DNA of 18,298 nt, from positions 1-18,298 of IMG/VR virus record IMGVR_UViG_2529292905_000017; one strand, 5' to 3'. Below, piece after piece: positions 3,001 through 6,000 of the stretch. The stretch comes from a virus (taxonomy: Duplodnaviria; Heunggongvirae; Uroviricota; Caudoviricetes). The stretch's first letter is position 1. The number at the start of each line of letters is the position of its first letter. A program made the position numbers.

Positions 3001-6000
3001 TGCTTTTTCCAGATTGGTGATATCCTGCTCCAGAGCGGACAGATTTTCAGCCTGCTTAGCCCTGGCTTCATTGGCCCATTTCAGATCCTGCGCTGCATTA
3101 ATTTTCTGGTGCATCCACTCATAAAGTTCATCATCGGTATAGTCTGGCGCGATGATGACGGGTTCTCGTTTCTGCATGTCGGCTCCTTGTGGTTAGCGTT
3201 GCCTGCTTTTAACCACGTCAGGCGAGGTGGTATCCTCTGAGGGGTCTGTTACTCGAGAGGAAATTGGTTATGAATACAATCAAGTTTTCTTGCCCAGAAT
3301 GTGGTGGCGAAGTCTTTGACACATCCTTTAAGCCGCAGGGCTCTGACAGTTTCGCGGGAGCCATCTGCAAAAATTGTGGTCACCTTGTAACTGAAGATGA
3401 GTCCTCGCAGTTCGATGACGAAATCGTTGACAATATCTTCGGTGCACTCACCAGAGACTTTCTGAAGTAAAGGCGCATACCGCTTAGTTACCGCTCTGAT
3501 AACTCTTACCTGTCCTGCAATGGCGCTGATGTCAATATAAAGCGCCATTGCTGCTTCTTTGCCGATCCCGGGATGCCTTCCATTCTGATGTTTGACTTCG
3601 CCCACTGAGAAACCCTCTGTTTCCCCTTAACGCCGGGGTAGCGGAACAAAAACCTGCTGCATAGTTATTAAAGTTGAACCCTGCCGTCATGTTCATACGC
3701 CTCGGGCTGGCTACTTAACCCCTGACCACTGCCGGGTAACTCGAAGTATTTCCCTGCGTTCTGTGGGGCGGGGTGGGTTGGTATTTTTAGTTTAATAAAC
3801 ATTAAACTTAAGTCAAGTAAAAACTAAACCGCGGGACATAACAAACACAACGCTTTTGATAAAGTCGTTGCGGTTGTTATGTTTCTATTGGTAGTGAAAG
3901 TTAGGGAAACTGGCGTCTTGCGTGGATCACGTTTACTACTTCAACGCTTGATGTTGTTACGCGGTATAGAATTATATAGTTAGGGTGGGCTACAATCTCA
4001 CGCAAGCCAGGTACTCTGTCGCTTGGTGGGTATAAATACGGATGTTCGGATAACGGCAGCACACAACCCCTTAATCGCTGCCATAAGCGTTCAGCCGCAT
4101 CTATGTCGAAACGAGCAATATAACTAGTTATATCATCTAGGTCGGTATCTGCGCTTTCAAGCCATAACACGGGTAACATTTTACTGCTTGCTCCGTTCCT
4201 TGCGCATCTTAGCAAAGCGTTCTGCCATTCTGCGCTCAACTTCGTCATGGGGAATTGCTGGGCGCGGATCTGCAAGGCTCGTTGCTACTTTCGCACGCAG
4301 CCATTCGTTGTAACTGTTTTCTTGTTCAATGGTTTCAAATTCAGAAACCATTGGTGAAAGGGCTCTATTCATGTTTCCTCCGGTTTTATAACTCAGGCGC
4401 GGCGGCATTTTTGCGCCGCAATCCATCTCGCTATGAGATCTTCCATTGATTCTTTTTTCTGCTTTAACTCGCTGATTATCTGGCGTTGCTCATCCTCAGG
4501 GAAGGCTGAAAAAATCTGCAATAATTCCAGTTGATTAGACGTTAACCCTGCATGTGGTGGAGAAACCCCCGGTTGTTCTGCGTATTCCGCATCCAGATAC
4601 CCTTCCGGCATCCCGTATGTTTGCTCTATTCTTCTGGCAGCCTTTTCTCCAAACGAGGCTCTCCCACTCATTAGTTGAGATAGGTAGCTCTTCTCTTTGG
4701 GTGGCAGAGTTTTATCTTTAAACCACTCCTTGAGACGTAAACGGCGAATTTCTTTTTTTGCATGTGGTAATTATCTTTAGTAATCACTAAACAAGCAAAT
4801 ACTTGACTTAATGGTTTATTAAACACTAAACTCGCAAAAAAACACTAAACCGAGGAAGGTATGACATTAAAAGAGTTTATTAAATCATTAAGGGTTGGTG
4901 ATGCTAAGAAATTCGCGGCCAGACTTGGTGTATCGCCATCTTACTTATCGCAAATGGCGTCTGGACGAACAGCTATATCTCCAACCCGCGCCCTTATGAT
5001 CGAATCTGCGACGGAAGGCCAAGTAAGTAGGGCGGAGCTACGACCCCATGATTGGGAGCTTATTTGGCCTGAGTATGCGAGCGGCATTCGTTTGGGGCAA
5101 ACACATGTAGTTCATGCTGAAGGTGATTGTAGTGCATGCTTATCTGATGGAGTTGATTCATGAAAATCAAGCATGAACACATCCGCATGGCGATGAATGT
5201 CTGGGCGCATCCGGACGGCGAAAAAGTACCGGCTGCGAAAATTACCAAAGCGTATTTCGAGCTGGGAATGACGTTCCCGGAACTGTATGACGACAGCCAT
5301 CCGGAAGCCCTGGCCCGTAATACCCAGAAAATTTTCCGTTGGCTGGATAAAGACACCCCTGATGCTGTTGAAAAAATGCAGGCTCTGTTACCGGCGATCG
5401 AAAAGGCGATGCCGCCTTTGCTGGTGGCCCGTATGCGCAGCCACAGTTCTGAATATTACCGTGAGATCGTCGAACGGAGGGATCGGCTGGTGAAGGATGT
5501 CGATGATTTTGTTGCGTCAGCGGTTGTTTTGTATGACCAGATGAATCGCGGCGGCCCGGCAGGGAATGCTGTGGTGATGCACTAAAAGCACGGTGTTCGG
5601 GGGTTTTATGAGCAGCAAGCTTCATGGTCTTGTCTGGGAAGGGTGCGCCTTCACCGGCATGATCTTATCCAGGGTGGCGGTTATGGCCCGTCTTGCAGAC
5701 TACAGCAATGACGAGGGCGTGTCATGGCCTGCCATTGAAACTATCCGGCGTCAGATCGGTGCAAGAAGTGAATCCACAGTGAAATCGGCTATTGCAGAAC
5801 TGGCGAAAGAGGGCTGGCTGACGAAGGAAGAGCGTAAGGTCGGTGGGCGTAATGTAAGCAATATCTATCGGCTTAATGTGGAAAAACTCGAAGCAGCTGC
5901 TGCGGCGGCGCGTGAGTCATATAAACCGAAAAGAAAAATTAGCCCGGCAAAAAATGACCCGTTAACAGTTGACCCGTCAAATATTGCCCCCTCAACGGTT

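Follow-up and report, generated by a model that had tools for sequence, protein, structure and literature searches.

We found that the regulator gene on the minus strand of the window (the whole 18,298-nt stretch of viral DNA analysed here) is, judging from its sequence, paaR2, the CI-analogue repressor of a CP-933P/Sp12-type (Rac-like) lambdoid prophage, and that its native ATG (4763..4761) is, almost without doubt, put out of frame by a run of seven adenines in place of eight. Because one base is missing, a HTH coding sequence appears to have no start codon, no SD is seen, and the apparent first ATG is the codon for Met32. paaR2 is an already known and well-studied gene, and the structure of its product has been solved. 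On balance, under-calling of the homopolymer in the assembly is the likeliest source of the missing A, in which case the gene itself is probably intact. The features of the gene are the following.

4393..4763, minus strand: paaR2, CI-analogue prophage repressor, from the leaderless ATG to the stop codon, disrupted here by a 1-nt deletion.
4761..4763, minus strand: native paaR2 start ATG, leaderless, in the +1 frame relative to the gene body here (alignment and sequence).
4753..4759, minus strand: A7 tract (T7 on the plus strand) in which the 1-nt deletion lies; the orthologous tract is A8, or A-G-A6 in phage Evi-type sequences.
4671..4763, minus strand: frame set by the native ATG here, a 30-codon peptide MQKKKFAVYVSRSGLKIKLCHPKRRATYLN with stop TAA at 4673..4671 (translation).
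4669..4671, minus strand: internal codon for Met32 at the C-terminal end of helix 2, taken as the start in the original prediction (alignment, AF2 model and translation).

The open reading frame that is directly visible runs from ATG 4671..4669 to a stop at 4395..4393 and encodes 92 aa. Upstream of this ATG the same frame stays open back to a TAA at 4773..4771. As first reported, the open stretch, LPHAKKEIRRLRLKEWFKDKTLPPKEKSYLSQL (33 codons, 4770..4672), contains no ATG, GTG or TTG; its only near-cognate codons are ATT 4749..4747 and one CTG. No AGGAG-like motif lies within approximately 15 nt 5' of ATG 4671, where the local sequence is ...GAGCTACCTATCTCAACTAATG. The reported lack of a SD is thus correct, but it is beside the point, since the native start lacks one as well. 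The chance of 33 open codons, (61/64)^33, is approximately 0.2, so that the length alone is unremarkable, and it is homology rather than openness that shows the stretch to be coding.

Intact paaR2 orthologues (O26:H11 11368 and phage Evi) have coding sequences of 372 nt, which encode 123 aa beginning MQKKEIRRL. Correction of the frame in the window gives a protein whose residues 1-66 match PDB entries 7NKV, 8C3K and 8C3L exactly in a PDB sequence search (E 9.6e-41 for 7NKV). The same three entries, described as "PaaR2 N-terminal domain", are the top Foldseek matches; "Phage repressor protein CI" is the depositors' name for the chain. An AF2 model superimposes on 8C3K at 0.7 Å in its N-terminal domain and places C-terminal helices at about residues 76-86 and 90-122. 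Together, the PDB, AF2 and Foldseek results bear out the suggestion that the upstream codons encode the first DNA-binding helices: they correspond to helix 1 and almost all of helix 2 of the PaaR2 N-terminal domain. Of the 25 columns that are invariant in the family alignment, 12 fall within these 31 residues (R7, R10, L11, W14, F15, P21, E24, S26, Y27, S29, Q30 and L31), and the Met32 position is non-conserved (M/I). Pfam searches with the 123-aa and the 92-aa proteins gave sub-threshold matches only, the best being HTH_31 (E 0.06, 14.1 bits against a cutoff of 27), which aligns with residues 25-54 only. Membership in the XRE/HTH_3-type HTH group is assigned from fold-level evidence and not from a sequence profile. 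No match to PF00717, the S24 autocleavage domain, was found by Pfam in the frame-corrected protein.

The position of the native start is known from published work on this repressor: 5' RACE placed the paaR2 transcription start site at the translation start, Edman sequencing gave a protein beginning MQKKE, and the intact mass was also determined (PMC8630535). The SD is lacking because the true start is leaderless and has none itself. In the window, a -10-like hexamer GATAAT, read by eye, lies at 4775..4770, 6 nt upstream of the native ATG; a scan for consensus promoters picked up no PRM on this strand. In sequenced orthologues, the native ATG is followed by C-A8-GAA, and in phage Evi by CAG-A6. 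Alignment with O26:H11 11368 and phage Evi showed that one missing A is the sole frame-changing difference, and over the promoter-proximal 91 nt it is the sole difference of any kind from O157:H7 strains. Consequently, the window has no continuous 123-codon ORF from the leaderless ATG, which stands in the other frame. The frame that this ATG does set, of 30 codons, ends at a stop that overlaps ATG 4671 (TAATG). The original prediction had proposed that the start codon was lost and the regulator truncated, which is the closest of its alternatives; however, the ATG persists at 4763..4761, and it is its frame that has been lost. The out-of-frame ATG and the homopolymer had been overlooked at that stage. 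In the orthologue alignment, translation starts at the upstream ATG rather than at the equivalent of ATG 4671.

The surroundings of the gene are those of an immunity region and a toxin-antitoxin operon.

4764..4860, strand not applicable: divergent promoter/operator region (PRM933P and PR933P) between paaR2 and ydaS, 97 bp (GTTTAGT operator half-site repeats).
4861..5163, plus strand: ydaS, Cro analogue, intact, 100 aa (PF15943 YdaS_toxin, 3.3e-12; HTH_3, 6e-07).
5160..5585, plus strand: ydaT, CII analogue, intact, 141 aa (PF06254 YdaT_toxin, 2.8e-10).
4181..4372, minus strand: paaA2 antitoxin, 63 aa, with the start annotated in orthologues (PF21217 PaaA2, 1.7e-19).
3901..4179, minus strand: parE2 toxin, 92 aa, with the start annotated in orthologues (PF05016 ParE_toxin, 4.8e-16).

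paaR2 is the first gene of the three-component toxin-antitoxin operon paaR2-paaA2-parE2. The orthologues of paaA2 have a 192-nt CDS annotated as a RelB-family antitoxin, those of parE2 have a 279-nt CDS, and ydaS is equal in length to its annotated orthologues; the assignment of ydaT as the CII analogue follows published work (PMC8630535, PMC9986795). The sequence GTTTAGTRW occurs three times in 4764..4860 (4784-4792, 4823-4831 and 4842-4850) against 0.33 expected, and the consensus scan found a promoter-like TTGACT-18-TAAACT at 4803-4832 on the plus strand, which fits PR. Both the 97-bp spacer length and the operator repeats match the published locus (PMC8630535). For PaaR2 of O157:H7, operator binding and repression of PR and PRM have been demonstrated by EMSA, footprinting and reporters (PMC8630535). 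By analogy, if the gene really is intact, PaaR2 would bind GTTTAGT-type operators in the 97-bp intergenic region, repress PR (ydaS-ydaT), autoregulate PRM and form a bistable switch with YdaS.

The gene is the same as that of CP-933P/Sp12 (O157:H7; PDB 7NKV, 8C3K and 8C3L; Jurenas et al. mBio 2021, PMC8630535), with the same operon order, 97-bp intergenic region with GTTTAGT repeats, divergent ydaS-ydaT and leaderless ATG context. The differences are a tract of 7 nt instead of 8, which leaves the ORF discontinuous from the ATG, and a surrounding prophage of different mosaic structure, which carries an inserted IS and lacks dicB and the 5' part of an exonuclease gene. Lambda CI is a functional analogue that occupies the same immunity-region position, is expressed from a leftward PRM-type leaderless mRNA, represses PR, autoregulates and competes in a bistable manner with the Cro analogue (PMC8630535). 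PaaR2, however, has no significant sequence similarity to lambda CI, lacks an S24 autocleavage domain and is not SOS-inducible, carries a C-terminal helical domain of approximately 50 residues, and is co-transcribed with a toxin-antitoxin pair. S24-peptidase (LexA/CI-type) repressors of approximately 210 aa from Serratia, Yersinia and Erwiniaceae share 57-83% identity over the first ~50-75 residues, including the very N-terminus (M-x-x-K/D-x-R-R-x-R-L-K-x-W-F), but have a C-terminal PF00717 domain where PaaR2 has its helical domain. RacR of Rac and DicA of Qin in E. coli K-12 are positional and functional counterparts, divergent from ydaS/ydaT- or dicC-type genes, although they belong to other sequence families and have no paaA2-parE2 downstream.

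To place the seven-adenine allele among other genomes, we compared the 91-nt segment of the window that carries it with complete E. coli genomes that have the locus. The segment differed in 589 of the 592 genomes and matched exactly in 3, the related ETEC genomes ETEC1732, ETEC1734 and ETEC1749; among the matches listed, all differing genomes were one base longer. In 50 IMG/VR contigs, the tract was A8 in 42, AGA6 in 4 and A7 in 4, so that 46 of the 50 are in frame. Of the contigs found to encode the exact 92-aa protein, some are simply truncated at the gene; only five carry A7, and one carries A9, the sole instance of that length. On NCBI contigs, the intact 123-aa protein was found on at least 999, the 92-aa call on 24 and the ATT-start call on 9. 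A7 is found on at least three different paaR2 haplotypes, turns up in older draft assemblies and in run-level assemblies, and is in every carrier accompanied by an intact remainder of the ORF and perfectly intact neighbours. The SRA runs with A7 include SRR094976, SRR096911, SRR094960, SRR497698 and SRR495239. The tract itself is not conserved: in Evi-type sequences it is interrupted by a G, and distant homologues have no tract (MDIKEIRR and similar). The ATG-A-tract pattern had no match in GTDB species representatives, the locus being absent from the representative genomes. The whole window had no exact match among complete E. coli genomes, the best being fS25a at 81% coverage.

Two further runs in the window support the view that the base was lost in the assembly. 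In the integrase gene, T7 has become T6 at 196-201 (plus strand), an exact match to which was found in none of the 1629 genomes with the segment, the best matches being one base longer. In an IS3-family element, T6 has become T5 at 9407-9411 (plus strand), and this copy otherwise has no mismatch over 1612 nt. Neither T-run deletion is shared by any other genome in the collection. Across the 9886 positions covered by at least three close relatives, there were no private substitutions. Homopolymer under-calling is favoured because private indels exceed private substitutions and all are deletions in long T runs. The recurrence of A7 on several haplotypes in draft and run-level assemblies likewise fits a recurrent miscall. 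Other long runs (A8 at 7454-7461, and T7 at 12363 and at 12396) agree with those of relatives, which implies that under-calling would be non-uniform. A mismatch-repair mutator background was considered as the main cause of the three homopolymer deletions and rejected, given the absence of private substitutions in approximately 9.9 kb. The window probably holds at least three homopolymer errors in 18 kb, and other apparent pseudogenes in it thus need caution.

A genuine deletion is possible, though we consider it doubtful: replication slippage in A8 would have left a frameshifted null or near-null paaR2 in a decaying cryptic prophage. The decay is real: an IS occupies 8520-10131, and 1.65 kb has been lost at the 2544/2545 junction, taking with it dicB and the 5' part of the exonuclease gene. 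Besides the long runs that agree with relatives, three points count against an artefact: genuine inactivating mutations would be unsurprising in a truly degraded prophage, the allele could be heritable given that A7 is carried by three related complete ETEC genomes, and a true null is tolerated in the published reporter. The tract does vary, as A7 occurs in those three genomes and in several independent assemblies, and A9 once. In that reporter, stop mutations in paaR2 leave the cells viable and abolish only the minority RAE2-on subpopulation, and approximately 90% of wild-type cells are already ydaST-on. The first 31 residues contain 12 of the 25 invariant family positions, which is consistent with a null allele. 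On the other hand, three private homopolymer deletions stand against no private substitutions in ~9.9 kb, the IS copy has no mismatch apart from one homopolymer deletion, a ratio that is implausible for real divergence, and the remainder of paaR2 and its neighbours is perfectly intact in every A7 carrier.

If A7 is real, the leaderless ATG would yield a 30-aa peptide and at most a 92-aa fragment through reinitiation at TAATG, and the switch would be locked in the ydaS/ydaT-on state. Reinitiation at TAATG was rejected as a route to a functional protein: the fragment could not bind DNA because helix 1 and most of helix 2 are missing. Were A7 null, paaA2-parE2 would be expressed only from the YdaS-repressed PRM and the YdaT-activated PRE. 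Such an allele would amount to a naturally occurring knock-down of paaR2 within an immunity region that is otherwise intact, modestly useful for studies of the bistable switch.

An improbable variant of this reading is that A7 is real and leaky. A -1 ribosomal slip, or RNA-polymerase slippage that adds one A, would restore wild-type PaaR2 (MQKKEIRR...) at a reduced level, and variation among A7, A8 and A9 would tune or phase-vary the bistable immunity and toxin-antitoxin switch. Codons 2-4 read CA_A AAA AAG and form an in-register A_AAA_AAG slippery heptamer (4758..4752), at which a -1 slip gives exactly the wild-type PaaR2 sequence. In E. coli, A_AA.A_AA.G belongs to the -1 motifs of highest efficiency (PMC4066793), and in pDEST17 a C-AAA-AAA near the start codon gave 25-60% rescue of 1-nt deletions (PMC1851650). 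The occurrence of A7 on at least three haplotypes with the downstream ORF always intact, and the existence of A9, would also suit this reading, but recurrent sequencing error explains the recurrence equally well. Moreover, with 589 of 592 complete genomes and 46 of 50 IMG/VR contigs in frame, the two-frame arrangement is not conserved, and neither is the homopolymer (CAG AAA AAA in Evi-type sequences; no A tract in distant homologues). With respect to phase variation, A7 was found in 3 of 592 genomes and 4 of 50 contigs and A9 once, counts in which error and true variation are inseparable here. The region downstream of the heptamer did not show a frameshift stimulator (-14.1 kcal/mol, z -1.09; 26 of 200 shuffled sequences gave an equal or better fold), and a leaderless mRNA with only 4 nt before the tract leaves no room for an upstream SD. 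Heptamers without stimulators gave only 2-10 times a 0.055% background (PMC4066793). The likeness to dnaX/IS3-type -1 sites extends to the identical A_AAA_AAG in the correct register, where a -1 slip would restore the wild-type protein, whereas the paaR2 heptamer has no stimulators, is unconserved and sits at codons 2-4 of a leaderless mRNA. The A_AAA_AAG in paaR2 is a by-product of the deletion and not an evolved recoding site.

Initiation at a non-canonical codon, also raised in the original prediction, would have to use ATT 4749..4747 and would give a 118-aa repressor that lacks the first 5 residues only. PGAP annotates exactly this CDS on the A7 allele in the three ETEC genomes, including ETEC1732, and the corresponding protein, WP_134790997.1, is the ATT-start call on 9 contigs. 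However, these calls are the product of automated rescue and carry no evidential weight. Very few E. coli genes start at ATT; infC does (AUU), and pcnB is another reported case. The ATT in paaR2 has no SD before it and lies at approximately +15 on the mapped leaderless transcript, behind the 5'-end AUG where leaderless initiation is expected. The orthologues start at ATG and the Edman sequence is MQKKE (PMC8630535), which makes an ATT start very unlikely. That the 92-aa product is complete and functional and the upstream similarity a coincidence is scarcely credible: the ORF exists, but the orthologues have 123 aa, the solved domain begins at Met1 (MQKKE), and Met32, without a SD, is a non-conserved (M/I) residue inside helix 2 whose use would discard the twelve invariant residues from R7 to L31.

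The value of the result lies mainly in annotation, in that a single homopolymer base makes a structurally solved repressor gene look start-less. Gene callers have rendered A7 paaR2 as 92 aa (labelled "putative phage repressor protein CI" in some draft genomes), as the ATT-start 118 aa and as over-extended 144/150 aa, and recognition of the leaderless ATG and A8 resolves all of these calls.

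On the minus strand, the 92-aa ORF runs from ATG 4671..4669 to a stop at 4395..4393, and 33 further codons lie open 5' of this ATG in the same frame, bounded by TAA 4773..4771. This upstream frame, LPHAKKEIRRLRLKEWFKDKTLPPKEKSYLSQL, contains no ATG, GTG or TTG, and a search for a Shine-Dalgarno (SD)-like motif 5' of ATG 4671 found none. Direct reading thus confirmed the observation, and the original prediction, which described exactly this 92-aa ORF with 33 open codons, no start codon and no SD, was accurate. It missed, at 4763..4761, a second ATG, whose reading frame differs from the open one by a single base. 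The minus strand reads ...GATAATTACCAC ATG C AAAAAAA G AAA TTC GCC..., in which a C and then seven A (4759..4753) directly follow this ATG. With eight A, the reading would be ATG CAA AAA AAA GAA ATT CGC..., that is MQKKEIRRLRLKEWF..., which is continuous with the frame that seemed to have no start.

The frame-corrected residues 1-66 are identical to the chains in PDB entries 7NKV, 8C3K and 8C3L, which Foldseek describes as "PaaR2 regulator N-terminal domain". The gene is surrounded by the following features:

Minus strand, downstream of paaR2: PaaA2 antitoxin (PF21217, 1.7e-19)
Minus strand, downstream of paaR2: ParE toxin (PF05016, 4.8e-16)
Upstream of paaR2, divergent: YdaS (PF15943)
Upstream of paaR2, divergent: YdaT (PF06254)
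4764..4860: spacer of 97 bp between the paaR2 ATG and the ydaS ATG

The spacer has the length reported for the cryptic prophage CP-933P and contains three GTTTAGT(G) repeats (0.33 expected), which agree with the published operator consensus. PaaR2 is the CI analogue of CP-933P (Jurenas et al., mBio 2021, PMC8630535). Its transcription starts at the A of the ATG, so that the mRNA is leaderless like that of lambda cI; Edman sequencing of the protein gave MQKKE; and a PRE-like promoter is activated by YdaT (Jurenas et al., PMC8630535). No SD is found anywhere because the real, leaderless start needs none. Judged by sequence, the operon, the operators, the divergent partners and the N-terminal domain match all identify the gene as paaR2 itself and not just a relative; the sole defining feature that the window gene lacks is a continuous ORF from the leaderless ATG. 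The gene is already known, and the lesion is an ordinary one.

PaaR2 works in the same mode as lambda CI but has neither sequence similarity to it nor an S24 autocleavage domain, and, unlike lambda CI, it has a toxin-antitoxin pair in its operon (PMC8630535). The N-terminal domain is common to PaaR2 and S24-type repressors of Serratia, Yersinia and Erwiniaceae; the DNA-binding domain is 57-83% identical to that of S24-peptidase repressors (~210 aa; proteins P0061-P0118, alignment A2). In the PaaR2 type, the autocleavage module appears to have been swapped for a helical C-terminal domain.

To describe the upstream stretch structurally, an AF2 model was built from a 40-sequence alignment (mean pLDDT 83). 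In wild-type numbering it has helices at ~1-14, 22-33 and 40-49, then a disordered linker and helices at ~76-86 and 90-122, and its N-terminal part superposes on 8C3K at 0.7 Å. The codon ATG 4671 corresponds to Met32, at the end of helix 2. A 17-member family alignment, which includes Serratia and Yersinia repressors with an S24 peptidase fused to this N-terminal domain, has M or I at position 32, and 12 of its 25 invariant columns fall in residues 1-31 (R7, R10, L11, W14, F15, P21, E24, S26, Y27, S29, Q30 and L31). The helix positions and invariant columns therefore show that the 92-aa product would miss helix 1 entirely and helix 2 (KEKSYLSQLM) almost entirely; an HTH_31 profile alignment of residues 25-54 points to helix 2 as the probable recognition helix. 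The model, the superposition and the invariant columns bear out the proposal that the upstream stretch encodes a helix-turn-helix. A complete 92-aa product is rejected, since the domain would be incomplete and orthologues have 123 aa, and so is a non-canonical start. The idea of a truncated regulator came near the truth with a different mechanism: the start codon is not lost, and a 1-nt homopolymer deletion lies 3' of the leaderless ATG.

The orthologous CDS is annotated with 372 nt and 123 aa in both O26:H11 str. 11368 and phage Evi, and its product starts MQKKEIRRL. At the gene start the alignment differs solely in the tract, which is C-A7-G in the window, C-A8-G in O26 and C-A-G-A6-G in Evi. 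When 4393-4870 was searched by megablast against 5,426 complete E. coli genomes, 592 proved to have the locus, and none of these was identical to the window; the best matches, all 479 nt long where the window has 478 nt, showed a single gap and 99.8% identity. A 91-nt tract-centred query matched exactly in 3 of the 592 (pig strains ETEC1732, 1734 and 1749) and not in the other 589, where all of the matches listed were one base longer. Of 50 IMG/VR contigs that contain the locus, A8 is found on 42, AGA6 on 4 and A7 on 4. A collection of 15 billion proteins has at least 999 contigs that encode the intact 123-aa protein, 24 with the 92-aa call and 9 with an ATT-start 118-aa call. A7 is present on at least three paaR2 haplotypes (GV, GG and EV at residues 65-66), always with the other 119 codons intact, and in run-level assemblies of several SRA runs. 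This recurrence fits a recurrent miscall and a slippage hot spot alike. An A9 allele was seen once (L064, a Logan assembly of ERR13317903, with the tract near position 432); the tract in public data thus varies in both directions, of which either error or biology could be the cause.

Compared with its closest prophage, that of strain fS25a, the window has three aligned blocks (about 12.6 kb, 99.76-99.9% identity) with only two clean indels, A8 to A7 in paaR2 and T7 to T6 at 196-201. The latter frameshifts the prophage integrase gene (minus-strand ORF 1..801), and the T6 allele occurs in 0 of 1,629 complete E. coli genomes carrying the segment, whose best matches have 102 nt against 101 nt in the window. 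A third deletion lies in an insertion element:

8520-10131: IS3-family element of 1612 nt, inserted in the prophage, with 1613-nt copies on many E. coli chromosomes and plasmids

This element, which may resemble IS1353, has 0 mismatches to those copies but T5 (9407-9411) where they have T6, and no E. coli record is identical to it. Through the deletion the transposase, a single 514-aa CDS in the annotated reference, falls into two ORFs, 9368..10090 and 8547..9401. All three private 1-base deletions are thus in long T runs of one strand and each breaks an otherwise conserved gene, against 0 private substitutions over the 9,886 positions covered by at least three close relatives. Such a pattern would be expected of homopolymer under-calling and unlikely under ordinary divergence, and we consider the missing A to be probably a sequencing artefact. 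A genuine null or near-null paaR2 allele is less likely in the face of three such deletions and no substitutions, although three points speak for it: the prophage is truly degraded (by the IS insertion and by loss of 1.65 kb with dicB and the 5' end region of the exonuclease gene), other long runs, for instance A8 at 7454-7461, have the same length in relatives, and in the published reporter stop mutations in paaR2 leave the cells viable. More exotic readings are, even jointly, improbable. A mismatch-repair mutator was rejected as the main explanation, since it would also add transitions.

If the deletion is real, the leaderless AUG would give MQKKKFAVYVSRSGLKIKLCHPKRRATYLN, ending at TAA 4673..4671. 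This stop closes a 30-codon frame and overlaps ATG 4671 as TAATG (minus strand 4669-4673), a termination-reinitiation arrangement that is a chance product of the frameshift. Reinitiation there could yield a 92-aa fragment without the first 31 residues, which would keep the C-terminal helical domain and could not bind DNA. Going by the published stop-codon mutants, the "RAE2-on" subpopulation would be lost and the switch locked ydaS/ydaT-on, the state in which ~90% of wild-type cells are found in the published reporter anyway. The deletion also creates the dnaX slippery heptamer A_AAA_AAG in register (CA_A AAA AAG), where a -1 slip would yield exactly MQKKEIRR..., the wild-type protein. This heptamer is among the most shift-prone E. 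coli motifs, and heptamers without stimulators reach just 2-10 times a 0.055% background (PMC4066793); in pDEST17, an A-run near the start codon rescued 1-nt deletions at 25-60% (PMC1851650). As for stimulators, a leaderless mRNA has no room for an upstream SD, and the fold 3' of the heptamer is insignificant (z -1.09). The slippery arrangement is not a conserved one: of 592 genomes, 589 keep the gene in frame; in Evi-type alleles the tract is interrupted, and distant homologues lack a tract. The heptamer arose with the deletion and did not evolve as a recoding signal; the A7 allele may be leaky.

In the three ETEC genomes, PGAP (NCBI) rescues the ORF by an ATT start, for example as a 118-aa CDS in ETEC1732 (record L003, 3054-3410; WP_282835446.1); the ATT-start 118-aa protein matching the window's variant is WP_134790997.1. 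Older draft genomes label the 92-aa version 'putative phage repressor protein CI', and other callers make the intact gene too long, at 144 or 150 aa, by choosing an upstream GTG or another start.

Elsewhere in the prophage, about 1.65 kb of the fS25a sequence is absent at the 2544/2545 junction, comprising the 5' part of a RecE-like exonuclease gene, a DUF1482 gene and dicB; ORF 1101..2549 is the truncated exonuclease remnant. At the IS flanks (8519/10132), about 1.5 kb of fS25a (a DUF551 gene, a small hypothetical gene and hokD) is replaced, which suggests insertion followed by adjacent deletion. Two tRNA genes lie 3' of the DNA methyltransferase gene, a phage-borne pair typical of lambdoid and Stx-type prophages:

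13973-14048: tRNA with anticodon CAT, tRNA-Ile in the annotation of relatives
14150-14226: tRNA-Arg(TCT)

For the DnaC/P-like 'ATP-binding protein' gene 3' of the O-like gene, both reference prophages have a pseudogene annotation, with a frameshift in O26 11368 and an internal stop in fS25a; in this gene the window agrees with fS25a at 6632-6637 (G5; compared with record L001).
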